Shown here in pieces: positions 2,204 through 37,471 of a stretch of DNA of 41,116 bases. The number at the start of each line of letters is the position of its first letter. Position 1 is the stretch's first letter. Source of the DNA: Rhodospirillales bacterium (lineage in GTDB: Bacteria > Pseudomonadota > Alphaproteobacteria > Rhodospirillales > 2-12-FULL-67-15); assembly GCA_009693905.1 (NCBI GenBank), contig SHWG01000002.1:1-41116 (forward strand), in the 5' to 3' direction. Below the pieces are notes generated by a model. The model worked only from the letters and a program-made list of their open reading frames with translations, was not told the DNA's origin and did not search any database. A program made the position numbers and the translations under genes.

Positions 2204-3381
2204 GGCTGGTCTCTTTCGGCGGCGGTCGCGGGGATGAGGGCGGCAACGGCGTCGGCCAGCGCGCGCGCCGCGTCGGGGCGGGCCAGGGTCCGGGCGAGGT
2301 TTGCGGCGCGGGCGAGCCCGCTTGGGTCGGCGAGCCGGCGGACCAGAAGCGAGGCTAGGTTTTCGGGCGTGAAGTCGGCTTCGGCGATCGTCCAGGCGGC
2401 GCCGATATCCGCGAGCGCGCGGGCGTTCGCGCTCTGGTGGTCGTCGGCGGCGTGCGCGTAAGGGACCAGGAAAGCGGGCCGGCCGAGGGCGGCGATTTCG
2501 GCCACCGTCGAGGCCCCGGCGCGGGCGATGACCAGTGCGGCCCGCGCCATGCGCTCCGGCGCGTCGGCGAAGAAGGGCGCGAGTTCCGCCGCGACGGCGA
2601 TGGCGGCGTAAGCCGCGCGGGTCCGTTCCAGATCCTCGGGCCGGCACTGTTGCGCGACGCGAAGATGCCGGCGCAAGTCCTCGGGCACCCGCGCGATGGC
2701 CGCGGGGACGACGTCGGCGAAAATCCGCGCCCCCTGGCTGCCGCCGAGGATCAGCAGCGCGACCGGATTTCCCGCCTCGGGAGCCCGGTAGGGTTGTCCC
2801 GCCAAGGCCGCCACTTGGGGACGCACCGGCATGCCGGTGCGCACGGCGCCGGCCGCCGTCGCCCGAGGCAACCCTTGGGTCGCGGCAAACGAGGTGGCAA
2901 CGCGGCCCACGCCGCGCGCGAGCAGGCGGTTGGCGCGGCCGAGCACGGCGTTTTGTTCGTGGATCGCGGTCGGGAGTCTTCTAAGCATCGCGGCGAGCAC
3001 GGTCGGAAACGAGGCGTACCCGCCGAAGCCGACCACGGCGCTGGGCCCGAGCCGGCCGAGCAGCGCGAACGCCTGGACCGTGCCGAGGCCGAGGCCGAAC
3101 ACGGCGCCCGCCCGCGCCCACGGGCTTTTGCCGGCAAGCGGGCCTCCGGCGATACGATGCGTGCCCATATCGCCGCCCGCGCGCGCAAGCGAATGTCCGC
3201 GCGCGTCCGTGACCAGGGCGAGCTTGAACCCGCGGCTTGAGAGTTCGGCGGCGAGCGCCTCGGCCGGGAATAGGTGGCCGCCGGTGCCCCCGGCCGCGAG
3301 AACGACGAGCCCGCCGGTCGTGCACTCGTCGTGCGAATGCACGCCTGCCGGCGTGACGCGCGCAAACCCTTGTGTCGTCAT
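2200..3381 (-). CDS. murG: Undecaprenyl-PP-MurNAc-pentapeptide GlcNAc transferase MurG
   Basis: [16 protein letters not shown] motif. ATG 3381 overlaps the ftsW stop (ATGA). The first ~20 codons are encoded by a palindromic mini-element (3326-3360). Confidence 0.92.
3326..3360 (-). repeat. Palindromic mini-element, 'HSHD' module, copy in the murG 5' codons
   Basis: TCGTCGTGCGAATGCACGCC-TGCC-GGCGTGACGCG (CACGCC/GGCGTG stem). Encodes [13 protein letters not shown]. Confidence 0.85.
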
Positions 3382-7075: not shown

Positions 7076-8605
7076 TCAGGCGCCGTTGTTCGCGGGCGGT
7101 ACGAGCAGAGCCTGGACGATCGTGCCGGTCCGGCTTCCGGCCGATCCCTTGACCAGCACGACATCGCCCGGACGCAAGGCCGCGACCACCACCGGCGCGA
7201 GGCTCGCGGCGCTTTCGGCGTGGCCGCCCCGCATCGCCGGCGGCAGCGACTTCGCGAGCATGGCCATGTGCGGGCCGGTGGTAAAGACAAGATCGAAGCG
7301 GGCCTCACGCAGCGGGCCGCTCAAGGCGGCGTGGTGCGCGGCGCTTTCGCCCCCGAGCTCCAGCATGTCGCCGAGCACGGCAATCCGGCGCCCGCCCGGC
7401 CCCGGCGCGACCGCGCCCGCGGCGGCCAGCGCCGCGGCCATCGAGGCGGGCGAGGCGTTGTAGCTCTCGTCGATCAGGAGAAACGCGCCGGCGCCGATGG
7501 CGACGCGATGACGCTCGCCGCGGCCCTTCATCGCCGGCACGTCGGCCAAGCCGGCGGCGGCGGCGGCCACGTCGGCGCCCAGCGCGTACACGGCGGCGAG
7601 CACGGCGAGGCTGTTCGCCACCCAATGCCGGCCGGCGAGGCCGAGCCGGTATGCGATCCGCCGGCCCGCGACCTCGGCTTCCACGTTCGAGCCGTCGGCG
7701 TGAAGCTCGAAGTTGCGCGCCCGGACGGTGACCTCGGGCCGATCCACCGCGCCGAAGGTGACGATGCGCTCTACCCCCGCGGCGCGGGCGGAAGCGACGA
7801 GCCGGGCGTAATAGGGGTTTTCGGCGGGCAGCACCGCCGCGCCGCCGGTCTCGACGCCGAAAAAGATTTCGGCCTTGGCGTCGGCGATCGCCTCCAGGCT
7901 GGGAAAGAACTCGATGTGCACCGGCGCGATCGCGGTCACGACCGCGACGTTCGGCCGGACCATCTTGACCAGCGGCGTGATCTCGCCCGCGTGGTTCATG
8001 CCGATTTCGAACACGCCGAAAGCGGCGTCGCTGGGCATCCGCGCCAGGCTCAAGGGCACGCCCCATTGGTTGTTGAAACTGCCGACGCTCGCCGTCGTCG
8101 AGCCTTGGCGGGAGAGAACATGGCGGAGCGCCTCCTTGACCCCGGTCTTGCCGACGCTGCCGGTGACGGCGACGACGCGCGCGTCGGCACGGGCCCGCGC
8201 GGCGCGACCGAGACCCTCCAGCGCAACTTGGGTGTCGGCGACGCGAACCAGGGCGGCATCGGGGCCCAATCCTTCGGGCACGCGCGCGGGCTTAACCCCG
8301 CGCGCATCGAATGTCGCGCCCCTACCGTGGCGGGCGACCACGGCCGCCGCCGCGCCGCGCTTGAAGGCATCGGCGACGAAGGCGTGGCCGTCGAGCCTGG
8401 GGCCTTTGAGGGCGACGAATAAATCGCCCGCCTGGATCGTGCGCGTGTCGATCGAGACGCCGCTTGCCTGCCAGTCAACGGAACCCACGTCGCCCCCGGT
8501 GGCGAGTGCGACTTCGGCCGCGGTCCAGAGAATGGGGCGCCGCGCGGGCGAATCCCCGCGCGCATTGAATGACGCGCCCCTGCCGGGGCGCCTGGGCGCG
8601 ATCAT
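7076..8605 (-). CDS. murF: UDP-MurNAc-tripeptide--D-Ala-D-Ala ligase MurF, carrying two in-frame repeat insertions
   Basis: [13 protein letters not shown]-loop. 509 aa, longer than usual. ATG 8605 overlaps the murE stop (ATGA). Inserts encode [17 protein letters not shown] (N-terminus) and [17 protein letters not shown] (internal). Confidence 0.93.
8283..8330 (-). repeat. Palindromic mini-element, 'GRGA' module, internal to murF
   Basis: The reverse complement CCACGGTAGGGGCGCGACATTCGATGCGCGCGGGGTTAAGCCCGCGCG matches the cofC copy at 42/48 positions (hand alignment). Encodes [16 protein letters not shown]. Confidence 0.9.
8541..8590 (-). repeat. Palindromic mini-element, 'GRGA' module, murF 5' codons
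   Basis: The reverse complement CCCCGGCAGGGGCGCGTCATTCAATGCGCGCGGGGATTCGCCCGCGCG matches the cofC copy at ~41/48. The CGCGCGGG/CCCGCGCG stem is kept while the loop differs. Encodes [16 protein letters not shown]. Confidence 0.9.
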
Positions 8606-10083
8606 GGTTTGGCCTCGCCGAGCGCCGCGCGGGCCTCGGCCGCGTCGTCGAAAGGGAGGGCATCCGTCCCGACGATCTGAACCCGCTCGTGCCCCCTGCC
8701 CGCCAGGACCAGAACGTCGCCCGCCTTCAAGCGCGCGACGGCGGCGCGGATGGCCTCGCGCCGGTCGGCGATTTCAACAGCGCCGGGACAAGCGGCAAGA
8801 ATCGCGCGGCGGATGGCGACGGGGTCTTCGCCGCGCGGGTTGTCGTCGGTGACGATCGTGGCGTCGGCGAAGTGGGCGGCGATGCGGCCCATCTCGGCGC
8901 GCTTGCCGGGATCGCGCTCGCCACCGCAGCCGAATACGAGGGAAAGTTTTCTCCGCGCGTGCGGGCGCAACGCGCCGAGCACGTGGACGAGGGCATCGGG
9001 GGTGTGGGCGTAGTCGACATAGACGGCGGCGCCGGTTTTCGTTTCGCCCGCTTTCTCCAGACGGCCGGGGACGCTGCCGAGGTGTTCGAGCGCGGCCACC
9101 GCCGCCCGCGCATCGGCGCCGCAAGCAATTGCCAAGCCCAGCGCGCAAAGCGCGTTCTCCGCCTGGAACAGGCCTACGAGGGGAAATTCGACCGCGCGCC
9201 GGGCCCCGAACAGAGAGAGATCGAGTTTCCGCCCGCCCGGCGTCGCTTGGTCAAAGCGCAGCGCGATATCGGTATCGTCCTCGCCGTAGGTGATGACCTT
9301 CAAGCGCCGCGCGCGGCAGGCATCGAGGATCGTATCGGCGCCGGGGGCGTCGAGGTGAATGACGGCCGTGGCGCCTTCGGGCAAAAGCTCGGCGAACAGG
9401 CGGCGCTTGGCGACGAGATAGGCGGCCATGTCGCGGTGATAATCGAGATGATCGCGGGTGAGGTTGGTGAACGCCGCGGCTTTCAACCGCACCCCGTCGA
9501 GGCGATATTGGTCGAGGCCGTGGCTCGAGGCTTCGAGCGCGAGATGCTCGATGCCGGTCTCGGCAAGCTCCTTAAGTGTCTGGTGCAGCTCCGCCGGATC
9601 GGGGGTGGTCAGCCCGCCCGCGCGCAGCGTCTCTCCTTGAGAGCCGACGATACCGAGGGTGCCGATACCGGCCGCGCGAAGCCCGAGGCTCGTCCAGATC
9701 TGGCGCAGGAAGTGGACCGTCGAGGTCTTGCCGTTGGTGCCGGTGACGGCGGCCACGGTTGCCGGCTGGCGGGCGAAAAAGCGCGCCGCCAGCAGGGCGT
9801 AGGCGCGGCGGGGATTGGCGGCGGAAAGAAAAACGGCCTTGGTTTCCGGCGCCAGCGGCTTGCTTTCCGCCGGCCCGAGCACCGCGACCGCGCCCCGGGC
9901 CAGCGCATCGGCGATGAATGCGCGCCCGTCGGTCTTGGTTCCGGCGAGCGCGGCGAACAGAAATCCGGGCGCCATGGCGCGCGAATCGGCTCCGATTCCG
10001 GCAATCTCGAGTTCGGGAGGGATCGCAACCGCGTTCACCTCGGTCAGTCCTTTCACAAGATCAATGAGACGCAACGCCGCCAC
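8602..10083 (-). CDS. murE: UDP-MurNAc-L-Ala-D-Glu--2,6-diaminopimelate ligase MurE
   Basis: VTGTNGKTST P-loop; TDDNPRGEDP (DNPR) motif. A GTG start at 10083 overlaps the ftsI 3' end by 23 nt; a TTG at 10074 is an alternative. Confidence 0.93.
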   Translation of the reverse strand: MAALRLIDLVKGLTEVNAVAIPPELEIAGIGADSRAMAPGFLFAALAGTKTDGRAFIADALARGAVAVLGPAESKPLAPETKAVFLSAANPRRAYALLAARFFARQPATVAAVTGTNGKTSTVHFLRQIWTSLGLRAAGIGTLGIVGSQGETLRAGGLTTPDPAELHQTLKELAETGIEHLALEASSHGLDQYRLDGVRLKAAAFTNLTRDHLDYHRDMAAYLVAKRRLFAELLPEGATAVIHLDAPGADTILDACRARRLKVITYGEDDTDIALRFDQATPGGRKLDLSLFGARRAVEFPLVGLFQAENALCALGLAIACGADARAAVAALEHLGSVPGRLEKAGETKTGAAVYVDYAHTPDALVHVLGALRPHARRKLSLVFGCGGERDPGKRAEMGRIAAHFADATIVTDDNPRGEDPVAIRRAILAACPGAVEIADRREAIRAAVARLKAGDVLVLAGRGHERVQIVGTDALPFDDAAEARAALGEAKP

Positions 10084-11941
10084 CTACGCCCACGATGGCC
10101 GCGGCCACACTTTCGATCGGGCGCGGGCGCGCGGGAGAATCGTCATGCGAATGCATGCCTGACGGCATGACGTGCGAAGGCGCGCCTAACGGCGTGACGC
10201 GCGCGCTGTCTGTCGCGCCCCTACCGGGGCGCGGTGCCGGCATCGGCGGATTCTCGATGGCGTCGTCGGGCGCGAGGCCGACGAGCGGCCCGAGCCGCTC
10301 GACGATGCGGCGCACCACGGGCGCGGCGATCCAGCCGCCGGTGGCGAGGCCGTGGGTCGAGGCGTTGCCCTTGGGTTCGTCGATCATGGCGAGCACGACG
10401 AAGCGGGGCTCGTGGATCGGGAACGCGCCGACAAAAGACGCTATGCGCGCGTCCCGGCGATAAACGCGACCCATCTGCTTGTCGGCGGTGCCGGTTTTGC
10501 CTCCGACCGTGTAGCCCTTGGCGTCGGCGTTCTTGCCGGTGCCGTGGACGACGGCGAGGCGCATGAGCTCGCGCATGGCGCGCGAGGTTTCGGCGCCGAT
10601 CGCGGCGGTGCCTTCGGGCACATGGCCGGGTTCGCGCTTCAAGATCGTGGCCGGGCGAAGCTGGCCGCCGTTGACGATCGCGGCGACGCCGGCGGCGAGT
10701 TGCAACGGGCTGACGGCGAGGCCGTGACCGTAGGCAATGGTCATGGTGTTGATCTCGCGCCAGCGCGCGGGCGCGAGCGGCGCGCCGGTTTCGGGCAGTT
10801 CGACCGGTGGGACCTTGAGCATCCCGAAGCCGTCGAGATATTCCCGCTGCAACCGCGTGCCGACATCGAGCGCCATCTTCGCCGCGCCGATATTGGAGGA
10901 AAAGGCCAGGATTTCGGGCACCGACAACCAGCGGTTCTTGCCCTTGTAGTCGGTGATGGTGAAACGGGCGATCTGGATCGGGCGGCTGGCGTCGTAGCCG
11001 TCGCGCAAGCCCACCGTTCCGGAATCGAGCGCCATGGCGACGGTGAACAGCTTGAAGGTCGAGGCCATTTCGTAGACGCCCTTGGTGACGCGGTTGAACG
11101 CGGATTCGGTTCCGGCGACGGCGGAAGAGTCGTTGGCGTCGAAGTCGGGCAACGAAACCATCGCCAGCACCTCGAAGGTCTGGACGTCGAACACGACCCC
11201 GGCGGCGCCGATGGCGCGGAACTCCTTCATCTGGAGGGCGAGCTCCTCGCGCAGGATATCCTGGATGCGAACGTCGAGCGAAAGCGCGAGCGCGCCTGAG
11301 CCTTCGGCGAGGCGGGCGTCGAACATCCGTTCCACTCCGGCGATGCCGCGCCCGTCCACGTCGGTGAGGCCGAGCACGTGCGCCGCCGCGCGTCCCTGCG
11401 GATAGACGCGGCGCTCGGCAACCTGGAACTCGAGGCCGGGAATGCCGAGGCGGTTGGCTTCGTACTTCTGGCGCGGGGTCAAATTGCGCTTGATCCAGAC
11501 GAAGCGGGCGCGGGAAGCGAGCTTGGCCTCGATCTGCTCCCGGTCGAGATCGGGAAACACCAGGGCGAGCTTGGCGGCGGCCTCGGCCGCGTCCAGAACC
11601 TCGCGCGGGTTGGCGTAAAGCGAAACGACCGGCAGGCTGGTGGCCAGCAGCACGCCGTTGCGATCGACGATCTCGGCGCGCGCGGTCGCCGCGTGGGGAG
11701 GCGTCGAGCGGGCGATGCGCGGCTCGCCGCCCTTGAGGACGGCGACGTCAACCAGGCGCACGGCGACGGCGACGAAAGCGAAGGCGATCACCGCGCCCGC
11801 CACCAAAAGACGATTGCGGCCGGTTTCGAGGGCCTGCAAGCCCTGGCCCTCGAAGGCAAAGGTCCGGCTGGCGGCCGCGGCAATAATGCCGGGGACAGGC
11901 GTTTCGTTTCCTCGGTTCCTAAACCACGCACGGCGGATCAC
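10061..11941 (-). CDS. ftsI: Division transpeptidase FtsI (PBP3), C-terminal tail encoded by a repeat
   Basis: ASTFK, SSN and KTGT penicillin-binding motifs, with an N-terminal TM helix. Start chosen at GTG 11941, which forms a GTGA overlap with the ftsL stop. The track's longer ORF (to 12106) would overlap ftsL by 168 nt. Confidence 0.88.
   Translation of the reverse strand: MIRRAWFRNRGNETPVPGIIAAAASRTFAFEGQGLQALETGRNRLLVAGAVIAFAFVAVAVRLVDVAVLKGGEPRIARSTPPHAATARAEIVDRNGVLLATSLPVVSLYANPREVLDAAEAAAKLALVFPDLDREQIEAKLASRARFVWIKRNLTPRQKYEANRLGIPGLEFQVAERRVYPQGRAAAHVLGLTDVDGRGIAGVERMFDARLAEGSGALALSLDVRIQDILREELALQMKEFRAIGAAGVVFDVQTFEVLAMVSLPDFDANDSSAVAGTESAFNRVTKGVYEMASTFKLFTVAMALDSGTVGLRDGYDASRPIQIARFTITDYKGKNRWLSVPEILAFSSNIGAAKMALDVGTRLQREYLDGFGMLKVPPVELPETGAPLAPARWREINTMTIAYGHGLAVSPLQLAAGVAAIVNGGQLRPATILKREPGHVPEGTAAIGAETSRAMRELMRLAVVHGTGKNADAKGYTVGGKTGTADKQMGRVYRRDARIASFVGAFPIHEPRFVVLAMIDEPKGNASTHGLATGGWIAAPVVRRIVERLGPLVGLAPDDAIENPPMPAPRPGRGATDSARVTPLGAPSHVMPSGMHSHDDSPARPRPIESVAAAIVGVGGGVASH
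10140..10231 (-). repeat. Composite mini-element (GRGA head plus duplicated HSHD module) forming the ftsI 3' tail
   Basis: TCGTCATGCGAATGCATGCCTGACGGCATGACGTGCGAAGGCGCGCCTAACGGCGTGACGCG followed by ...GTCGCGCCCCTACCGGGGCG. Encodes PGRGATDSARVTPLGAPSHVMPSGMHSHDDS. Confidence 0.85.
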
Positions 11942-12288: not shown

Positions 12289-13349
12289 GCCGCTCTCCGT
12301 CGGCGGGCTTGCGCGCGTCGCGCCGGAAGGCGCGCCATCAAATAATGCCGGCTTCGCCGGTGGGCGCACGACTTCGCGTCGTTCCACGGGGGCGCATCGG
12401 TGCGTTCGGCCGCGCGCAAGCGGGCCGAACGCGCGCGCGGATTGGCGGCGACCTCGGCCTCCGACGGACGCTGGATCCCGGCCATGAGCCTGAAGGTCGG
12501 CGGGCGCGCGGGCCCCTGGGGAACCGGGCTGTGGCGCGACGGCCCCGGAACGCGCCCGGAGCGTTCGGCAAGAAACGTCTTTACGATCCGGTCTTCGAGG
12601 GAATGGAAGGAAACGACGGCCAACCGTCCGCCCGCCTTGAGCAGGGTTTCGGCGGCGGCGAGGCCGCGCTCGATCTCGCCCAACTCGTCGTTGACGTAAA
12701 CGCGCAGCGCCTGAAACGTGCGGGTCGCCGGGTCGATGCCGTCGCGCGCGCGCGGCACGACCCGGCGCACGATCTCGGCCAATTCAAAGGTACGCTTAAG
12801 CGGCGCCACGGCGCGCGCCGCGACGATGGCCCGCGCGATGCGTCCGGCCAGGCGTTCCTCGCCGAAGCGGCGAATGATGTCGGCGAGTTCCGCCTCGGGC
12901 AGGCGGTTGACGGCATCGGCGGCGGTGGCTTGGGTGGAATCGGCGGCGTTCATGCGCATATCGAGCGGTCCGTCGGCGCGAAACGAAAATCCCCGCTCCG
13001 GATCGTCGAGGTGCCGCGACGAAACGCCGAGATCGAAGGCGATGCCGTCCACACGCTTCACGCCTACGCCGGTTAAAAGGCCGACCATGCCGCCGAAGCG
13101 ACCGGAGACGAGGGTGAGGCGGCCTTTGAACCGGCGGGCGAGCGGCGCACCCGCGGCCAAGGCTTCGGGATCGCGATCGATGCCGAAAATCTTTGTCCGC
13201 GACCGGGCTTCGAGGAGCGCGGTGGCGTAACCGCCGCCGCCGAAGGTCGCATCGACGTAGATCGCGCCGGCCTTGGGCGCGAGTCCCGCAAGCACTTCGG
13301 CAAGCATCACCGGGACGTGGCGGGGCGGGGCGGAGCTGGGCGCGGTCAT
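12285..13349 (-). CDS. rsmH: 16S rRNA (cytosine1402-N4)-methyltransferase RsmH/MraW
   Basis: HVPVMLAEVL, DATFGGGGY and DLGVSS motifs. Start at ATG 13349 preferred over ATG 13430 (a 27-aa non-homologous extension); the start is uncertain. Confidence 0.9.
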   Translation of the reverse strand: MTAPSSAPPRHVPVMLAEVLAGLAPKAGAIYVDATFGGGGYATALLEARSRTKIFGIDRDPEALAAGAPLARRFKGRLTLVSGRFGGMVGLLTGVGVKRVDGIAFDLGVSSRHLDDPERGFSFRADGPLDMRMNAADSTQATAADAVNRLPEAELADIIRRFGEERLAGRIARAIVAARAVAPLKRTFELAEIVRRVVPRARDGIDPATRTFQALRVYVNDELGEIERGLAAAETLLKAGGRLAVVSFHSLEDRIVKTFLAERSGRVPGPSRHSPVPQGPARPPTFRLMAGIQRPSEAEVAANPRARSARLRAAERTDAPPWNDAKSCAHRRSRHYLMARLPARRAQARRRRAA

Positions 13350-13548: not shown

Positions 13549-13595
13549 GACGATCGGGGGGGTATTTTTGAACCCCGGCACTAGTTCGAATAAAT

Positions 13596-13990
<395 letters not shown>

Positions 13991-15582: not shown

Positions 15583-15705
15583 GACGCGATTCTCGTCCGC
15601 TCTCCGCCCGCCGGCGAAGCCGGCTTGACATTTTGCGCGCGAAGCGCGCGGGGGGGGGAACCCCTTTAAGGTAGCCGAGAGAGGGGCGAGTGCAAGGGGG
15701 TGTTT

Positions 15706-20031: not shown

Positions 20032-20219
20032 GCGATCATACGGCACACCTCCCCCTCACCCTCCCCTCTCCCCCCGCAAGTGGCGGGGGGAGAGGGTTGC
20101 CCCGCCGGCTTTGCCGGCAACCGTTTTTCGCGCGCGAAGAGCGCGCGAGGGGGGTTGGCGCGGCGCTCGGGCCGCGCCTTACCCGGAGCTGGGTGAGGGG
20201 GGCGATGCCAATCGATCGC
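20032..20219 (+). repeat. Mosaic BIME/MITE-like intergenic repeat, copy A (livK-livH spacer)
   Basis: Terminal inverted CCCCCTCACCC (20051-61) and GGGTGAGGGGG (20191-201), with imperfect outer arms GCGATC...GATCGC. Internal hairpin cassettes: CTCTCCCCCCGC-loop-GCGGGGGGAGAG, GCCGGC-TTT-GCCGGC, CGCGCG-AAGAG-CGCGCG, GGCGCGGC-loop-GCCGCGCC. Confidence 0.85.
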
Positions 20220-22625: not shown

Positions 22626-23437
22626 GGCGCACGGGCTTCCGCGATGGCGCGCTTGAGCGCGACGTGATGGATGCGGATTTGGTAGGCGTCGTCGCCCAAA
22701 GGCGTGCCCGCGAATAGGGCGGAGACCCAGGCCTCGCCCGGGTCCCGCTCGGCGATCTTGGCGTCGTCGACGACGATCGGGGGGCCCGAGACCGCGCCGA
22801 TCACCGCGCGCGCGAATTTGCGCGCCGGGTCGATCAGAACCACCCCGGTGGCGTGCGAGAACTCGCCCGCCTTGCGGCATATTTTTGCGTAGCCCCAGCG
22901 CGCGTTCGCCGACAGCGCCGGAATCCGGATTTCAACGACCAGTTCGCCGGGCCCAAGCGCGGTCTCGAACGTACCCCGGATAAAGTCCTTGGCCGGCACG
23001 GTTCGCCGCCCGCCCGTTCTCGCGACGACCACGTCGGCGCCGAGGGCGGCCAAAACCGAGACCCAGTCGGCGGCGGGATCGGCGTGCGCCAAGCTCCCGC
23101 CGACGGTGCCGCGGTTGCGGACCGCGCGATAGGCGATCCCGGCGGCCACCCGCGCGAGCACGCCCCGGGTGGGATCGGGAGTGCCGCCGTCCTCCAGCGC
23201 CGCGTGGGTGACGCAGGCGCCGAGGACGAGAAAACCTTTTTCTTCGCGGATCGACGCCAACTCGGGGATCGCGGTGATGTCGACCAAGAGTTCCGGCTGG
23301 ACCAGGCGCAAATTCAGCATCGGCCCGAGCGACTGGGAGCCGGCGAGCGGCTTGGCGTTCAAGTCCTCGCGCCCGAGCAATTTGAGCGCCGCATCGAGGG
23401 TCGCCGGCCGCTCGTAATCGAAATCGACCGGTTTCAC
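22622..23437 (-). CDS. FAD-binding medium subunit (CoxM-like)
   Basis: 271 aa with AGSQSLGPMLNLR and a CO-dehydrogenase flavoprotein C-terminal domain. The GTG start forms a GTGA overlap with the large-subunit stop. Confidence 0.88.
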   Translation of the reverse strand: MKPVDFDYERPATLDAALKLLGREDLNAKPLAGSQSLGPMLNLRLVQPELLVDITAIPELASIREEKGFLVLGACVTHAALEDGGTPDPTRGVLARVAAGIAYRAVRNRGTVGGSLAHADPAADWVSVLAALGADVVVARTGGRRTVPAKDFIRGTFETALGPGELVVEIRIPALSANARWGYAKICRKAGEFSHATGVVLIDPARKFARAVIGAVSGPPIVVDDAKIAERDPGEAWVSALFAGTPLGDDAYQIRIHHVALKRAIAEARAP

Positions 23438-25863
23438 GGTTTATTCCCCGCCGCGAGCGAATCGTCGTGCGAATGCACGCCGAGCGGCGTGACGCGGCGA
23501 CCGTTTGTTGGCCCGCCTACCGGCGGGACGGCCGCGGCGATCGCCGCGAACACGCGCTTGGGCGACATCGGCGTATCGGTGAGCGTGGCGCCGAGCGGCT
23601 TCAGCGCGTCGTTGATCGCGTTGCAGATCGCCGCCGGCGGCGCGATGGCGCCGCCCTCGCCGATGCCTTTCTGGCCGAACTCGGTCAAGGGCGACGGCGT
23701 GGTCATGTGCACGATTCGGATCGGCGGAATCTCGGGGAATCCGGGCACCAGATAGTCGGCGAAGGTGGAGGCGAGCGGCTGGCCCTCGGCATCGAAGGGC
23801 ACCTCTTCGTACAGCGCCGTTCCGATTCCTTGCGCGATGCCGCCCAGAACCTGCCCTTCCACCACCATCGGGTTGAGCATGACGCCGGCATCCTCGACCA
23901 CCACGTAATCGAGAATCTCGACCGCGCCGGTTTCCGTGTCCACCGCCACGACCACGGCGTGACTGGCGTACGAAAACGTGCCCTGGTCCGACTTCGGCTT
24001 GTAGCCGGCGGTGACGTCGAGGCCGCCCGGGTCCACGTCCGACGGCAGAAGCTGCGGCGCCCGGTACCAGACCCGCGCGATCTCGGCCAACGGCACGTGG
24101 CCCAAGCCGGCGCGCACAAAGCCGTTCTCGAATTTGGCGTCTCCCGGTTTTGCCTGGAGGAGATGGGCGCCGATCTTCGTCGCGCGCTCGACCAGAACCT
24201 TGCACGCCGCCGCGACCGCGCCGCCCCCCATGACCGCCGCGCGCGAGCCCCAGGTGCCGGTCGAGAACGGCGTCAACCCCGTATCGCCGTGCACCACCTT
24301 GATCTTGGAAATATCGACGCCGAGAACCTGGTGCGCGACCTGGGCCAGCGTCGTTTCCATGCTCTGGCCGTGGGATTGCAGGCCGACGCGGATCTCGATC
24401 CCGCCGTCGGGAGTGATGCGCGCCTGGGCCAGCTCGTGTCCGGGCACCATGGGAATGCCCCAGCCGTGATAGACGGCGGTGCCGTGCCCGGCCTGTTCGC
24501 AGTAGATCGCCAAGCCAAGCCCGATCCGGCGCCCGTCCGCCTCGCCTTTCTTTTGGCGCTTGCGGATGCCGGCGAGGTCGATGGCGGCGACGGCCCGGCG
24601 CATCGATTCGGGGTAATCGCCGCTGTCGAAATGCTTTTTGGTGACGTTGACGAACGGCATCTTCTCGGGCGGAACGAGATTGAGAAGCCGGACCTCGTGC
24701 GGCTCGCGCCCGACCGCACCCGCGATCGCGTCCATGATCTGCTCGATGGCGAAGCAGACGCCGGTGCGCGCGACCCCGCGATAAGGCACGATCGGCGGCT
24801 TGTTGGTGCACACCGAAACGGCGTGGCAGCGATAATGAGCGAAGTCGTAGGGCCCGGGCAGGATGCTGCCGACTTGGCCCACCTCGAGGCAGGCCGAGAA
24901 GGGATAGGCCGAATAGGCGCCGGCATCGACGAGGACCCGGGCGTCGAGCCCGAGCAGGCGGCCCGTTGCGTCGGCGTAAGCGGTAATGTCGTAGCGGTGC
25001 TCGCGGGCGTTCGCCGCCGCGACCAGGTGCTCGCGCCGGTCCTCGGTCCAGCGCACCGGATGGTCGAGCGCCCGGGCGAGCCAGGCGGCGATCACCTCCT
25101 CGGCCTGCAACAGCCCCTTCCAGCCGAAGCCGCCGCCGACGTCGGGCGCGATCACCCGGATCAAACCCTGATCGACGCCGAGACACTCGGCCAGACCCTG
25201 GCGGACGATGTGCGGCATCTGGGTCGAGGTATGAACCGTGAGTTGTTCCGCTTGACGCTCCCACACCGCGACCACGCCCTTGCCTTCCAGGGGCACCATG
25301 CACTGGCGGGCCATGCGGATCTGGCGCGAAACCTTGATCGGCGCGCTGGCCGCGATTGTCTCGATGTCGCCCACGACCGTATCGGCTTCGAGAAAGAGGT
25401 TGTCGCTCCAATGATCGTGAATTTTGGACTTGGGCGCGCGCGCGGATTCGAGCGTGTCGGCATTGACCGGCAATTCCTCGAAGTCGATCTCCACCAGGGC
25501 GGCGATATCCTCGGCTTCGGCGCGGGTGCGCCCGACGCAGGCCGCGACCGGCTCGCCGACGAAGCGGACCTTGCCGTCGGCCAACGGCGGCTGGTCGGAA
25601 ATCTTGAATCCGGGAAGGCCCGAGACGGCGCGGATCGGCTTGACGCCCCCCTTGGCCAAGTCGGCCCAGGTAAAGACCGCGCCTTGGTGTTCGGGCGGAA
25701 CACGGATCGCGCGGATGCGGGCGTGCGCGAGCGGGCTCCGAACCAAGGCGATATCCTTCATCCCGACCAGCGCGATGTCGCCCGTGAAGCGGCCGCGCCC
25801 CTTGAGCAGGCGCTCGTCCTCGCGCCTGCGGACCGCCGCGCCCACGCCCATGCCCTCGGCCAT
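23434..25863 (-). CDS. Molybdopterin-binding large subunit (CoxL-like, not the CO-dehydrogenase signature)
   Basis: ATG 25863 is preceded by GGAGGAGG. 809 aa aldehyde oxidase/xanthine dehydrogenase fold. The active-site loop reads VPYRGVART, not AYXCSFR (form I) or AYRGAGR (form II). The C-terminal tail (RRVTPLGVHSHDDS) is repeat-encoded. Confidence 0.88.
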   Translation of the reverse strand: MAEGMGVGAAVRRREDERLLKGRGRFTGDIALVGMKDIALVRSPLAHARIRAIRVPPEHQGAVFTWADLAKGGVKPIRAVSGLPGFKISDQPPLADGKVRFVGEPVAACVGRTRAEAEDIAALVEIDFEELPVNADTLESARAPKSKIHDHWSDNLFLEADTVVGDIETIAASAPIKVSRQIRMARQCMVPLEGKGVVAVWERQAEQLTVHTSTQMPHIVRQGLAECLGVDQGLIRVIAPDVGGGFGWKGLLQAEEVIAAWLARALDHPVRWTEDRREHLVAAANAREHRYDITAYADATGRLLGLDARVLVDAGAYSAYPFSACLEVGQVGSILPGPYDFAHYRCHAVSVCTNKPPIVPYRGVARTGVCFAIEQIMDAIAGAVGREPHEVRLLNLVPPEKMPFVNVTKKHFDSGDYPESMRRAVAAIDLAGIRKRQKKGEADGRRIGLGLAIYCEQAGHGTAVYHGWGIPMVPGHELAQARITPDGGIEIRVGLQSHGQSMETTLAQVAHQVLGVDISKIKVVHGDTGLTPFSTGTWGSRAAVMGGGAVAAACKVLVERATKIGAHLLQAKPGDAKFENGFVRAGLGHVPLAEIARVWYRAPQLLPSDVDPGGLDVTAGYKPKSDQGTFSYASHAVVVAVDTETGAVEILDYVVVEDAGVMLNPMVVEGQVLGGIAQGIGTALYEEVPFDAEGQPLASTFADYLVPGFPEIPPIRIVHMTTPSPLTEFGQKGIGEGGAIAPPAAICNAINDALKPLGATLTDTPMSPKRVFAAIAAAVPPVGGPTNGRRVTPLGVHSHDDSLAAGNKP
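23462..23527 (-). repeat. Palindromic mini-element, HSHD module plus degenerate head, coxL-like 3' tail
   Basis: TCGTCGTGCGAATGCACGCC-GAGC-GGCGTGACGCG is identical to the murG copy except for the loop, followed by ...GCCCGCCTACCGGCGGG. Encodes PPVGGPTNGRRVTPLGVHSHDDS. Confidence 0.85.
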
Positions 25864-30270: not shown

Positions 30271-30389
30271 GGGTGAGTAAAGTTCCCTCTCCCTTGCGGG
30301 AGAGGGAGTCTTATGTAGGCCCCGCACACCTCGCTCCACCCCTCACCCGGCCGCTAGCGCGGCCACCCTCTCCCGCAAGGGGAGAGGGA
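30271..30389. repeat. Diverged relative of the mosaic repeat, copy D (LLM-gntR convergent spacer)
   Basis: GGGTGAG and CCCCTCACCC ends. Two hairpins, CCCTCTCCC-TTGC-GGGAGAGGG (30285-30306) and CCCTCTCCC-GCAAG-GGGAGAGGG (30366-30388), plus GGCCGC-TAGC-GCGGCC. Preceded by three GGCGATGG direct repeats (30231-30259). Confidence 0.7.
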
Positions 30390-30394
30390 CTTTC

Positions 30395-31216
30395 TTACCG
30401 CCCCACCCCCGCCCCCTTCAACAAATCCACATCGAGCCGGACGCAGTCGCCGCGATAGACCATATCGGCGACGTAGATCGCCAGCCCTGAGCGGTTGACG
30501 ATGGCGCAATGGACCTCGGCGGTCGGCGCGTTCAAGGGGACGCGCAGGTATTCGGCGACTTCCGGGTCGGCACCGCCGATGGTCACGGTGTTGTAGGCGT
30601 GGGCGATCCGGGCGCGCTCATGGTGGACGAGAACCGGCAACGCGGTGTGGGCGAGAAATTCCTCCGGCGCGCGGTCGTAGACGGCGCGGTCGATGTGCAC
30701 CGAGACGACCGCGAACGGCACGCCATCGCGGTACTGGACGCTGCGCAGATACCGGTAGCCGGCGGGCGAATGGCGGCCGTCGCCCGGGCCCAGGCGCGGC
30801 AGCGGCGGCGGGCTCGCGACCGTCACGAACTTTGGCACGTTGACGGCGACGATGCTTGCGAGCGAGTCGAGATCGTTGGCGAGCCGGAGCCAGCGCCGCT
30901 CCGGCACCGCGCGGGCGACGAAGGTGCCCTTGCCCTGCTGGCTCCACACCAGCCCTTCCTTCACCAGGAGATCGACCGCCTGGCGCACGGTCACCCGCGC
31001 CACCTGAAACTCGCGCTCCAATCCTTCGAGGGTCGGGAGTTTTTGCCCAGGGCCAAAGGCCCCGTCCTCGATCCGGCGGCGAAGCAGGCCGGCGAGCTGG
31101 ATGTAAAGGGGAACGCGGCTGCGTCCGAAGGCGCGGGCGAGAGAGGCATTTTTCGTCCGCTTACGCGCATTATTCGATGCGCCCCTATCGGGGCGACGGC
31201 GCTTGGCGGGGATCAT
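30395..31216 (-). CDS. GntR-family transcriptional regulator (HutC/UTRA-like effector domain probable)
   Basis: Internal ATG 31216 (ATGA overlap with the pxpC stop). PLYIQLAGLLRRRIEDG...LPTLEGLEREFQVARVTVRQAVDLLVKEGL is a winged HTH. The N-terminal codons RPDRGASNNARKR are repeat-encoded. Confidence 0.85.
   Translation of the reverse strand: MIPAKRRRPDRGASNNARKRTKNASLARAFGRSRVPLYIQLAGLLRRRIEDGAFGPGQKLPTLEGLEREFQVARVTVRQAVDLLVKEGLVWSQQGKGTFVARAVPERRWLRLANDLDSLASIVAVNVPKFVTVASPPPLPRLGPGDGRHSPAGYRYLRSVQYRDGVPFAVVSVHIDRAVYDRAPEEFLAHTALPVLVHHERARIAHAYNTVTIGGADPEVAEYLRVPLNAPTAEVHCAIVNRSGLAIYVADMVYRGDCVRLDVDLLKGAGVGR
31164..31195 (-). repeat. Palindromic mini-element, GRGA module (short), gntR 5' codons
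   Basis: CGCGCATTATTCGATGCGCCCCTATCGGGGCG; compare CGCGCATTGAATGACGCGCCCCTGCCGGGGCG at 8559-8590. Encodes PDRGASNNARK. Confidence 0.75.
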
Positions 31217-34578: not shown

Positions 34579-34781
34579 GATCGAATGGAATCATCCCCCC
34601 TCACCCGTCAGAACCGCTTTGCGGTTCGACCGGGTAAGGCGCGGCCCGAGCGCCGCGCCAACCCCCCTCGCGCGCTCTTCGCGCGCGAAAAACGGTTGCC
34701 GGCAAAGCCGGCGGGGCAACCCTCTCCCCCCGCGAGTAGCGGGGGGAGAGGGAAGGGTGAGGGGGGTGGTGCCATTCGATC
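34579..34781 (-). repeat. Mosaic BIME/MITE-like repeat, copy B (npdG-cofE spacer), inverted relative to A and C
   Basis: Outer inverted arms GATCGAATGG (34579-88) and CCATTCGATC (34772-81). 34631-34733 is a 103-nt perfect match to the reverse complement of copy A. Carries an extra hairpin cassette GTCAGAACCGC-TTT-GCGGTTCGAC. Confidence 0.9.
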
Positions 34782-35590: not shown

Positions 35591-35711
35591 CCCCCCTCAC
35601 CCTTCCCTCTCCCCCCGCGACTTGCGGGGGGAGAGGGTTGCGCAGGGCTGGCGCGGCGCGAGCCGCGCCTTATCCGGTCGAACCGCAAAGCGGTTCGACG
35701 GGTGAAGGGGG
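35591..35711 (+). repeat. Mosaic repeat, copy C (cofE-cofD spacer), short variant
   Basis: CCCCCCTCACCC...GGGTGAAGGGGG ends. Contains the CTCTCCCCCCGC/GCGGGGGGAGAG hairpin, the GGCGCGGC/GCCGCGCC hairpin and the GTCGAACCGC-AAA-GCGGTTCGAC cassette. Lacks the central cassettes of A and B. Confidence 0.85.
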
Positions 35712-35750
35712 AACGGTTCCGGTCGGTGCTAAAATATTCCGGACTGGCCC

Positions 35751-36719: not shown

Positions 36720-37471
36720 GCCGCGCGTTTCCCGTTTTCGCCCTGGTTCCGGTTCGCGCTTTTCCCGAAGGCAAAAAGCGGTTGGCGCCGCTCATGTCAC
36801 CCGAAGAAAGGGCCATGCTTGCGAAAACCATGCTCGAAGACGTGCTCGATTGTCTCGGCCGTTCGCCCGCCGTCGAGGGGATCGCGGTCGTGACCGACGA
36901 CGCGGACGCCGCCGCGCTCGCCCTCGACCATGGCGCGCGGGTGCTGCCCGATGCGCCGGAACCGAACGGCGGCCTCAACGCCAGCCTCGCCGGCGCCGCC
37001 GCCTGGCTTCGCGCGACGCACCCCGGCAGGGGTGCATCATTTGATGCGCGCGGGGTTAAGCCCGCGCGACCCGGACGGGCGACGCTCATTATCCATGCCG
37101 ACCTGCCCGCCGCGACCCCCGAAGACATCGCCGCGTTGGTCGCCGAAGACGCCGAAATCGTGCTCGCCCGCGCCCACGACGGCGGGACCAACGCGATGCT
37201 GCTCCGCCCCGGCGTTTCGCTCCCGTTCGCGTTCGGGCCTGAGAGTTGCGCCCGCCACCAGGCCGCCGCCCGCGCCGCCGGGCTTTCGGTCGCCGTCGTC
37301 GAGCGCCCCGGACTTTCCCTCGACCTCGACCGGCCGGAAGACGTCGCGGCGTACCTCGCCCGAGCCGGGAACTCGCGCACCCTTGGCCTGTTGCACCGGC
37401 AGGGCATCCCGGCCCGGCGGCGCGCATTAAATGATGCACCCCTACCGGCGCGCGCGAGGACGGATTCATGA
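36716..37471 (+). CDS. cofC: CofC/FbiD-type guanylyltransferase of F420 biosynthesis, with two repeat insertions
   Basis: ALVPVRAFPEGKKRLAPLMSPEERAMLAKTMLEDVL and IIHADLP motifs. 251 aa versus roughly 210-225 for characterised homologues (from memory). ATGA overlaps at both ends. Confidence 0.85.
   Translation: MSRAFPVFALVPVRAFPEGKKRLAPLMSPEERAMLAKTMLEDVLDCLGRSPAVEGIAVVTDDADAAALALDHGARVLPDAPEPNGGLNASLAGAAAWLRATHPGRGASFDARGVKPARPGRATLIIHADLPAATPEDIAALVAEDAEIVLARAHDGGTNAMLLRPGVSLPFAFGPESCARHQAAARAAGLSVAVVERPGLSLDLDRPEDVAAYLARAGNSRTLGLLHRQGIPARRRALNDAPLPARARTDS
37021..37068 (+). repeat. Palindromic mini-element, GRGA module, internal to cofC
   Basis: CCCCGGCAGGGGTGCATCATTTGATGCGCGCGGGGTTAAGCCCGCGCG, with sub-palindromes GCATCA-TT-TGATGC and CGCGCGGG-GTTAAG-CCCGCGCG. 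Encodes [16 protein letters not shown]. Confidence 0.9.
37421..37448 (-). repeat. Palindromic mini-element, GRGA module (short), opposite orientation, cofC 3' codons just 5' of the fbiC SD
   Basis: CGCGCATTAAATGATGCACCCCTACCGG is the reverse complement of the head of the 37021 copy. Read on the other strand it gives [12 protein letters not shown]. Confidence 0.85.

Follow-up and report, generated by a model that had tools for sequence, protein, structure and literature searches.

The REP and BIME elements of enterobacteria and the REPINs, which are mobilized by RAYT (Y1) transposases, are overwhelmingly extragenic, carry a GTAG tag and typically occur as inverted pairs, and they can affect the mRNA stability and translation of neighboring genes. 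REPs that lie inside genes are reported to encode 20–30 residues; >10% of them are at the ends of ORFs, N-termini being the commoner site (PMC3733652). The CGTC REPs of Alphaproteobacteria (Di Nocera, De Gregorio & Rocco 2013, PMC3733652) are not known to have a transposase of their own. Rickettsia palindromic elements (RPEs) are repeats that sit in frame within unrelated housekeeping genes and are translated with them (Ogata et al. 2000, summarised in PMC10969869 and PMC3733652). MIRUs form a small ORF between two genes that is coupled to both (Supply et al. 1997, summarised in PMC12548453).

The stretch of DNA analyzed here (the window) is the 41,116 nt contig SHWG01000002.1 of the Rhodospirillales MAG GCA_009693905.1. 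It is 96% genic and comes from an uncultured, free-living freshwater Rhodospirillales lineage with high G+C (68%). We found nine copies of one repeat family in the window. Two diagnostic patterns gave 5 + 3 matches, compared to 0 expected from shuffled sequences, and a covariance model (CM) recovered the same copies. An earlier note on this DNA had counted eight, overlooking a copy in the RsmH tail at 12317-12362; the six junction copies that it listed were all where it had placed them, and the flanking genes, whose identities we checked with Pfam and called genes, were as it had named them. All of the copies lie inside ORFs and not between them. Rfam at gathering thresholds returned a sole match in the window, RNase P RNA, and the repeat matched no family. 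Two GNRA-type hairpins at 13667 and 13785 turned out to be part of the RNase P RNA, and a weak CM match (15 bits) at 15616-15652 resembles a promoter-region hairpin and was left uncounted. Across loci of related MAGs and metagenomes we collected ~60 non-redundant copies, and the column-by-column identity among 16 full copies from three genomes was 92%. About two thirds of the 60 matches from a scan of a genome collection were chance or gene matches, for example to a conserved Paraburkholderia gene, and scan matches lacking the hairpin arms were discarded.

The basic unit is 48 nt long and consists of two G+C-rich hairpins, hairpin A (CGCCCC-GNNA-GGGGCG) and hairpin B (CGCGCGGG-GATTCG-CCCGCGCG), joined by the A+T-rich linker CATCATTTAATG. 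One or two hairpin units of 27 nt (CGTCAYGCC-GNNA-GGCRTGCATTCGCAYGA) may be nested in a 48-nt unit, and composite CM matches exceed basic ones by exactly 27 nt; at one locus (L096), the 48-nt unit is triplicated in tandem. Stems measure 5–7 bp in hairpin A and the nested unit and 8 bp, with a 6-nt loop, in hairpin B, and one compensatory change was found (GCACCCC/GGGGTGC vs. GCGCCCC/GGGGCGC). Full copies are predicted to form a pair of hairpins with energies of -34 to -36 kcal/mol (z = -3.2 to -5.4), whereas several eroded junction copies fold no better than shuffles (murG, z = -0.3; cofC 3' copy, z = +1.1; rsmH, z = 0.0). Since the length of each unit is divisible by three and half of the six reading frames through it are free of stops, an insertion will often add 16 (or 16 + 9n) codons and leave the frame intact; net inserts were indeed all multiples of three (48, 48, 24, 57 and 102 nt, where 102 equals 48 + 2x27). 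Both strands encode hydrophilic peptides with a high content of Gly, Arg and Pro, and the 16-residue peptide of the forward frame contains RGD; a full-text literature search gave no match to the element-encoded peptides. Neither a target-site duplication nor a clear target motif was seen. The unit ends share only CGCGC/GCGCG, and CGCG microhomology between flanks and ends blurs the insert boundaries, so that no duplication is resolved.

Like the CGTC REPs, the repeat forms small G+C-rich stem-loops with 4-nt loops, and its nested 27-nt unit opens with CGTC adjoining the stem (CGTC-AYGCC-GNNA-GGCRT; CGTCACGCC.. and CGTCATGCC..). The 48-nt unit, however, has no terminal CGTC; the motif is confined there to the linker, and to some copies, and this main unit is made of two unlike hairpins plus an A+T-rich linker. 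In this REP superfamily an unpaired CGTC (or TGTC/CCTC) adjoins the stem, and the stems are 8–9 bp long with A-T pairs first, have loops of 4–5 nt and are accompanied by a CCA tail, whereas hairpin A and the nested unit have stems of 5–7 bp, an AT-first stem is found in one of four nested units in the window and the tail is GCA; the 4-nt loop does agree. The units are also single or in direct arrays, not in head-to-head dimers. With REP, BIME and REPIN elements the family has in common that it consists of hairpin repeats, present in tens to hundreds per genome and co-transcribed with operons, but all nine window copies are inside ORFs, no GTAG lies by the stems, and no RAYT or other mobilizing gene was found in the genome fragments covered. 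The likeness to RPEs extends to an alphaproteobacterial host, tolerance at termini and surface loops and the occasional presence of several copies in one gene. The two differ in size (about 100–150 bp for RPE-1 vs. 48 nt plus nested 27-nt modules), in host (the reduced genome of an obligate intracellular Rickettsia vs. a free-living freshwater bacterium of 68% G+C) and in that many copies here are right at the overlapping junctions of essential operons. In this last respect they recall MIRUs, which likewise occur at operon-internal starts with 4-nt stop/start overlaps and coupling kept, an arrangement thought to minimize the effect on the downstream gene. Unlike a MIRU, the window element is fused into the flanking gene without a separate ORF, leaves the ATGA outside itself and is also found in C-terminal tails and in mid-gene, and MIRUs are not hairpin pairs.

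In murG, a degenerate copy (3310..3375, minus strand), comprising one 27-nt-type hairpin unit and the remnant of a hairpin B arm, occupies codons 3-24. It begins 6 nt past the ATG of the ftsW/murG ATGA overlap (3378-3381) and adds a net 57 nt; in two related loci (L001 and L003), murG reads ATGAC(G/C) plus 3-4 codons and then passes into the conserved (L)AAGGTGGH. A full unit (8541..8592, minus strand; CM 77.7 bits) fills murF codons 5-22, starting 13 nt past the ATG of the murE/murF ATGA overlap (8602-8605). This site varies among relatives: P0002 has a copy, L001 and P0006 have half of one, P0005 and P0007 have none, and L003 has a different hairpin, while the murE/murF ATGA overlap is kept in all DNA loci compared. 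The second murF copy, a full 48-nt unit (8283..8332, minus strand; CM 65.6 bits) at about codons 91-107, separates the N-terminal Mur ligase domain from the central one. It is missing in all 16 aligned MurF homologues, including some that are 85–88% identical, and in DNA alignments it is a clean 48-nt insert relative to L001 and L003. The AlphaFold model of MurF is poor in its N-terminal domain (pLDDT below 50 for residues 1-123) and is therefore uninformative on both inserts.

The C-terminal tail of ftsI carries a composite copy (10132..10237, minus strand) made of a 48-nt unit and two nested 27-nt units and encoding PRPGRGATDSARVTPLGAPSHVMPSGMHSHDDSPARP; what the earlier note had described as a triple hairpin is one element. 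Its end is some 65-70 nt (68 nt) upstream of the stop codon of ftsI, and L003 has just CCAA in its place (net insert 102 nt); the copy is supported by CM matches and is fixed in four metagenomes. The RsmH tail holds a diverged unit (12317..12362, plus strand; CM 21.6 bits, E = 4e-4; ..HRRSRHYLMARLPARR..) that is antisense to rsmH and stops 29 nt short of the rsmH stop codon, itself part of the rsmH/ftsL ATGA overlap. RsmH is 354-381 aa in the window compared to 335-338 aa in L001 and L003.

Outside the dcw genes, a variant unit with one nested 27-nt unit (23447..23527, minus strand), encoding VPPVGGPTNGRRVTPLGVHSHDDSLAAG, lies in the C-terminal tail of a CoxL-like large subunit and ends 10 nt, or three codons, before the stop in the coxM GTGA overlap (23434-23437). 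When this CoxL was compared to 150 representatives, the match stopped near query residue 800-803, 4–10 residues before the homologue's end, and the window protein had 31 residues more; sequencing depth over the coxL repeat is 50x that of the flanks, and its identity is also backed by the pattern match. In gntR, an eroded unit (31145..31197, minus strand) that has kept hairpin A and the linker and lost hairpin B occupies codons 7-24 (MIPAKR-RRPDRGASNNARKRTKNA) and begins 19 nt past the ATG of the pxpC/gntR ATGA overlap (31213-31216). The nearest GntR homologues (P0196 and P0197) are without the insert, and full or eroded copies are present at the same site in P0198, P0200, P0199, P0203 and locus L097. 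A full 48-nt unit (37018..37068, plus strand; CM 74.6 bits) lies inside cofC at codons 102-117, where it cuts the Pfam CofC match in two; it is missing in 15 CofC homologues and is a 48-nt insert relative to L097. The insert sits in a loop that connects a helix to a strand, and residues 102-120 of the AlphaFold model are low-confidence coil with a pLDDT of 56–58 (mean of the whole model, 83.7), so it is predicted to be disordered. The C-terminal tail of CofC contains a half unit, hairpin A plus linker (37419..37454, minus strand; CM 33.3 bits), antisense to cofC; 14 nt separate its end from the stop codon, which is part of the cofC/fbiC ATGA overlap (37468-37471). The half unit amounts to a 24-nt insert relative to L097, in which the ATGA overlap is already there, and the tail of CofC exceeds that of its homologues by 8 aa.

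At the level of sequence, these comparisons show each copy to be a lineage-specific in-frame insertion. Upstream of the inserts, the N-termini of MurG (M-T), MurF (M-I/T) and GntR (MxPAKR) are conserved. With the starts ahead of the 5' copies conserved in this way, these copies are expected to be translated, as the earlier note had argued; the conserved protein resumes directly after the inserts. We also confirmed its statement that, past the element, murF and gntR have no ATG, GTG or TTG in frame until the conserved residues are reached (in murF, the invariant L-W-x-A), and that murG offers one candidate start only, a GTG within the element. The genes murF, murG and ftsI are essential. Given this essentiality and the lack of alternative starts, we infer that the proteins, as expressed, contain the inserted segments.

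For seven of the nine copies, the nearest gene boundary is no more than 65 nt away (distances of 6–61 nt), compared to a mean of 1.9 in 100,000 random placements (P = 0.0005). They are at the 5' ends of murG, murF and gntR and at the 3' ends of rsmH, ftsI, coxL and cofC; the other two are deep inside murF and cofC, in frame. Seven of nine are sense to the host gene. A bias in orientation relative to replication was considered as a sign of single-strand transposition, and the split of 7 vs. 2 in one window is not significant. At ftsW/murG, murE/murF, rsmH/ftsL, cofC/fbiC and pxpC/gntR, the ATGA overlap is present without any spacer in element-free loci of relatives and of a co-occurring strain. 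This makes the overlaps ancestral; it was into the first or last codons of the genes that the elements inserted. That two window copies and many copies in relatives lie deep in genes indicates that a junction is not required.

In the MAGs of relatives, the element is found in frame inside PyrD, Tgt, PriA, a GlpD-like protein, MurE and other genes. In-frame inserts fall within the Pfam domains DHO_dh, TGT, DAO, Glycos_transf_2 and PNPOx, and in PriA the element lies between domains; the coding context of these copies rests only on hand-checked Pfam cases, and the census is small. An automatic census by two methods (GC3-based, then codon log-odds) was noisy, with ambiguous and double assignments, since a high-G+C gene is coding-like in its antisense shadow frame as well. 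Some genes were entered separately at other positions, namely MurF of P0003 (a second site) and CofC of P0140 and P0142.

Presence and absence also vary within one population. In three of four metagenomes, an empty murG allele, in which 3310 is joined to 3376 with GCCGGGGC between, accounts for ~27–31%, and the depths of the two alleles sum to the flank depth. Depths of the empty allele were 12.6/40.8 in X1, 95.3/~320 in X2, 100.4/~371 in X3 and 0 in X4. The flanks of this allele carry 4 SNPs relative to the filled one, and the murG copy is degenerate; the polymorphism could reflect deletion or recombinational allele replacement instead of recent insertion. The six other copies tested are fixed in the four samples.

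The best reading of the family is that it consists of lineage-specific, small, non-autonomous hairpin repeats like REP, RPE or MITE elements. We consider it likely that it is a selfish REP/RPE-like repeat that selection has filtered to tolerant protein termini and loops. Copies would persist only where the extra residues are tolerated, that is, in the first or last few codons and in surface loops, and in a window that is 96% genic, with operons whose stop and start codons overlap, such tolerance-limited survival at gene ends would produce the apparent siting at junctions. Mobility is probably conferred by an enzyme acting in trans, perhaps a tyrosine (Y1) transposase working on single-stranded hairpins. 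Coupled junctions may put up with 5' copies because the hairpin would be melted by ribosomes that finish translating the upstream gene.

One feature does not follow from pure chance insertion: the validated sense coding inserts use only one of the two open forward frames, which would need selection on the peptide. The family might be adapted to coding DNA and coupled junctions, with 3n modules, harmless disordered peptides and hairpins melted by ribosomes, and some of the copies that are fixed at junctions of the dcw, cox, pxp and F420 operons might have been co-opted, a scenario that we regard as rather unlikely. If true, co-opted copies would make the downstream gene strictly dependent on upstream translation or damp it, and would set enzyme ratios in essential pathways.

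A related proposal, already present in the earlier note and to our minds also doubtful, is that selection keeps the hairpins as regulatory RNA that tunes coupling or protects mRNA segments, thereby setting the protein ratios of the dcw, cox, pxp and F420 operons. Intact hairpins of -34 to -36 kcal/mol do lie within 6–20 nt of coupled starts, seven of nine window copies are sense and the six fixed copies would fit. A search for RNA-seq runs returned none. Structure just past an upstream stop is reported to reduce coupling efficiency, and the accepted mechanism of coupling has the upstream ribosome unfold the RNA (PMC12548453), both of which count in its favor. However, several junction copies (murG, cofC 3' and rsmH) are eroded and have lost any folding advantage, presence at the junctions is patchy among close relatives, and about 30% of the population dispenses with the murG copy. 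Identical units in mid-gene, in unrelated genes and in both orientations, also argue against a regulatory role, which is not needed to account for the pattern.

The earlier note had favored insertion into, or survival in, short intercistronic spacers, with the neighboring ORFs later extending through the elements and recreating the 4-nt overlaps. Such a history would suit the seven of nine copies that adjoin operon-internal junctions and the mostly intergenic location of REPs elsewhere, near gene 3' ends (PMC3733652), but it is highly improbable. The note had suggested comparing the same junctions in related genomes for a spacer without an element, and that comparison instead returned empty orthologous sites with an ATGA overlap and no spacer at five junctions. 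Furthermore, the MT.., MI.. and MxPAKR starts upstream of the 5' inserts are conserved in insert-free homologues, two window copies and at least 10 in relatives lie deep in genes, and the true spacers of the window are occupied by a different repeat family. Least probable of all is a selected module, a shared 16-residue RGD-containing peptide spread by recombination for the benefit of host proteins: although the second open frame goes unused, conservation is at the DNA level and includes synonymous positions (the 92% column identity), the reverse strand gives an unrelated peptide in other genes, some copies have no coding frame through them, the hosts are cytoplasmic enzymes with nothing in common and the insert is predicted to be disordered.

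If the family is a selfish repeat filtered by protein tolerance, RPE-like selfish DNA in genes is not confined to reduced intracellular genomes, and a free-living high-G+C alphaproteobacterium tolerates hairpin repeats in MurG, MurF (twice), FtsI, RsmH and cofactor-synthesis enzymes. The inserts flag sites in well-studied enzymes that accept 8–37 extra residues, and the 3n modules with their single preferred frame offer a clean system for studying mobile DNA against coding constraint. The murG polymorphism provides a natural pair of filled and empty alleles bearing on translational coupling. For annotation, such repeats lengthen proteins, split domain matches (as in CofC) and can lead to wrong calls of start codons, and short-read assemblies break at them.

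The depth of the element was 46–59x that of its flanks and was constant over the four samples, which ranged from 40x to 370x in coverage, and these ratios suggest 50–60 copies per genome. Loose ends of the element led into diverse flanks. The copies are clustered, as the window holds 5–8% of the estimated total in roughly 1% of a typical genome.

The window's repeats form a genuine family, picked up by searches for direct and inverted repeats and by two diagnostic patterns, which returned 5 and 3 matches in the window versus none in shuffled sequence. When 16 intact copies, taken from the window and from two related MAGs, were aligned, they needed no gaps and showed 92% column identity, giving the consensus CGCCCC-GRYA-GGGGCG-CATCATTTAATG-CGCGCGGG-GATTCG-CCCGCGCG, in which an A+T-rich linker separates two hairpins (A and B). 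Intact copies are predicted to fold into these same two hairpins, at -34 to -36 kcal/mol (z = -3.2 to -5.4). One or two additional hairpin units (CGTCAYGCC-GNNA-GGCRTGCATTCGCAYGA) are nested in hairpin B of some copies, each adding exactly 27 nt (model matches of 81 nt versus 54 nt). The triple hairpin in ftsI is a single composite element of this kind, its net insert of 102 nt equalling the 48-nt basic unit plus 2 × 27 nt.

As read off the 16-copy consensus, two forward-strand frames are open and the third meets TAG or TAA; on the reverse strand one frame is open and the other two meet TAA or TGA. Every validated coding insert in sense orientation is read in the first forward frame, and all antisense inserts but one are read in the open reverse frame. 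The RsmH copy departs from this and is read in a frame whose stop codons were lost by mutation. The favoured element peptides are rich in Gly, Arg, Ser, Asp and Pro. In L096, a related metagenome contig, three head-to-tail 48-nt units (10871-11020) lie within a hydratase-like ORF and encode AHP(N/D)RGASFDARGDSP three times, which shows that tandem amplification of the unit can preserve the reading frame; this ORF had no Pfam match at 1e-5.

The window has 68% G+C, is 96% genic and matches a stretch of contig SHWI01000014.1 (MAG GCA_009691085.1) with full identity; its nearest relatives carry the label "MAG: Rhodospirillales bacterium". Pfam matches and gene calls placed in it a minus-strand dcw cluster (rsmH, ftsL, ftsI, murE, murF, mraY, murD, ftsW, murG, murC), a coxL/coxM-type molybdoenzyme, pxpCB-gntR and an F420 operon (cofE, cofD, cofC, fbiC). 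Trained on the 16 copies, a covariance model recovered all eight elements described in the earlier note and a ninth that it had missed, at 12317-12362 in the RsmH C-terminal tail. Seven of the nine are found at junctions within operons, 6-61 nt in from the end of a gene: at the 5' ends of murG, murF and gntR and in the 3' tails of rsmH, ftsI, coxL and cofC; the other two lie ~270 nt inside murF and ~300 nt inside cofC. Under random placement, 1.9 of nine copies would be expected ≤65 nt from a gene boundary, versus the seven observed (P = 0.0005). The earlier observation on start codons also held up: in MurF and GntR there is no in-frame ATG, GTG or TTG between the element and the conserved residues (in MurF, invariant L26 and W27), and in MurG the sole candidate start is the GTG within the element itself. 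Five elements fall within 9 kb of the dcw cluster. A bacterial class A RNase P RNA (13595-13987, minus strand; Rfam, 302 bits), flanked by rsmH/mraZ-side DNA and an amidase gene, contains two GNRA-type hairpins that are superficially element-like and belong to that RNA, outside the repeat family.

Compared with homologues, every copy in the window is a lineage-specific in-frame insertion. The 16-residue insert within MurF is missing from 16 of 16 aligned homologues, including those 85-88% identical, and corresponds to a clean 48-nt insert in the DNA. The 16-residue insert within CofC is missing from 15 homologues and amounts to 48 nt relative to the related locus L097; it was modelled as a low-confidence coil (pLDDT 56-58) with a helix on one side and a strand on the other, within a model that is confident elsewhere (mean pLDDT 83.7), and the CofC tail is 8 residues (24 nt) longer through a reversed half unit. 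MurG has 19 extra codons following codon 2, and ftsI has a 102-nt insert versus four bases in the related locus L003. The match of the CoxL-like protein to 150 representatives stops near residue 803, 4-10 residues from their ends, and 31 residues, the element among them, extend beyond it. Presence at a given site is patchy. The GntR copy follows a conserved MxPAKR and is missing from the two closest homologues; others, including that in L097, carry it full or eroded at the same site. At the MurF N terminus, the homologue P0002 has the copy, P0006 and the related locus L001 have half, and P0005 and P0007 have none; P0003 carries the same element peptide at a second site. The murF 5' end of L003 holds another hairpin (CCCGCC-TACC-GGCGGG, 10008-10060), so this site is occupied by different elements in different lineages. 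Other CofC homologues (P0133, P0140 and P0142) have different inserts at other positions: that of P0133 is 24 residues long, and that of P0140, SCEGTPSGVTRASIDAPL, is what a composite element encodes in the reverse frame.

The earlier note had proposed that elements probably target, or survive in, short intercistronic spacers and that ORF extension then recreated the 4-nt overlaps, and had suggested looking for element-free spacers in related genomes. What we found at these junctions was the overlap itself, already present at ftsW/murG, murE/murF and rsmH/ftsL in L001 and L003 and at cofD/cofC, cofC/fbiC and pxpC/gntR in L097. Because genes in loci lacking the element already overlap, there never was a spacer for elements to fill; the overlaps are ancestral and the elements were inserted a few codons within the genes, which contradicts the proposed sequence of spacer insertion and ORF extension. 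The murE start is ambiguous at 10061-10083 (478, 487 or 493 aa depending on the gene caller); by homology to L003 it is likely a TTG, so that the overlap with the ftsI end would be ~14 nt instead of 4.

Among 185,579 species-representative genomes scanned by pattern, true copies turned up in just two MAGs, Rhodospirillales bacterium RIFCSPLOWO2_12_FULL_67_15 and a MAG with the label Hyphomicrobiales; the remaining matches lacked the hairpin arms and were discarded. A metagenome scan added 31 loci, and covariance-model searches of related loci gave ~60 non-redundant copies. Since an automatic coding census was noisy and gives no reliable fraction, in-gene cases were checked by hand for Pfam domains spanning or flanking the insert. 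In-frame hosts in relatives included dihydroorotate dehydrogenase, tRNA-guanine transglycosylase, a GlpD-like FAD oxidoreductase, a family-2 glycosyltransferase (two copies), PriA, a YgfZ-like protein, an AmiC linker, a PNPOx-like protein, MurE and the hydratase with three tandem units; some other copies have no coding frame through the element. The family therefore does not generally need a junction position. Family members also occur elsewhere in the dcw genes of relatives: the L001 copy inside MurE is 51 nt long (8707-8763).

The window was present in six freshwater metagenome runs. In four of them, depth was 46-59x flank depth over the nested unit and hairpin B and ~30x over hairpin A. These ratios stayed constant while coverage ranged from 40x to 370x, so the extra copies reside in the same genome, at roughly 50-60. 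By these depth estimates, 3 of ~55 hairpin-B copies and 4 of ~50 nested units fall in the window, or 5-8% of element copies in probably ~1% of the genome, an excess that could reflect local clustering or how the window was selected. The murG locus is polymorphic within the population and formed a bubble in the assembly graph: filled and empty alleles had depths of 28.2 and 12.6, ~233 and 95.3, and ~273 and 100.4 in three runs, together equalling flank depth. The empty allele (window 3310-3376), which reads ATG ACG GCC CCG GCG CTC… and whose haplotype carries 4 SNPs in ~130 nt of flank, made up ~27-31% of depth in these runs and 0% in a fourth. No empty allele was seen for the murF (two), cofC (two), ftsI, coxL or gntR copies.

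Most simply, the element can be read as selfish DNA, a mini-element of the REP/RPE kind that forms hairpins. A length of 3n and frames free of stops would allow it to persist within genes, and selection would have filtered copies to tolerant places, which in tightly packed operons are the codons at either end of a gene. Where genes are coupled through an ATGA, a ribosome finishing the upstream gene would already have opened a hairpin starting 6-19 nt downstream, a step resting on coupling models reviewed in PMC12548453, and this may explain the tolerance of 5' copies. A regulatory role is possible for some fixed copies. As a general explanation it fits poorly with the erosion of several junction copies, which fold no better than shuffled sequence, with the patchy presence among relatives, and with a murG copy that part of the population does without.

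REPs inside genes and Rickettsia RPEs are already documented (PMC3733652, PMC10969869), and CGTC-tagged REPs predominate in Alphaproteobacteria (PMC3733652). The nested unit likewise begins with CGTC adjoining its stem, but the element departs from CGTC REPs in stem length, the AT-first rule and the CCA tail, and its main 48-nt unit is built on another architecture. MIRUs also keep -4 overlaps between operon genes, but achieve this by forming mini-ORFs of their own (PMC12548453). Given these mismatches, we class the element outside the CGTC, GTAG/REPIN and MIRU families, as a new family among the already known gene-internal REP/RPE-type repeats.

The true intergenic and intercistronic spacers of the window hold a second, unrelated and larger repeat family (core CCCTCTCCCCCCGC-NNNN-GCGGGGGGAGAGGG, up to 136 nt) at 20051-20186, 30284-30390, 34630-34765 and 35591-35725, two copies of which are 97% identical in inverted orientation. 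This second family has enlarged the npdG-cofE gap to 236 nt, versus 18 nt in L097, and the cofE-cofD gap to 182 nt, versus 11 nt.
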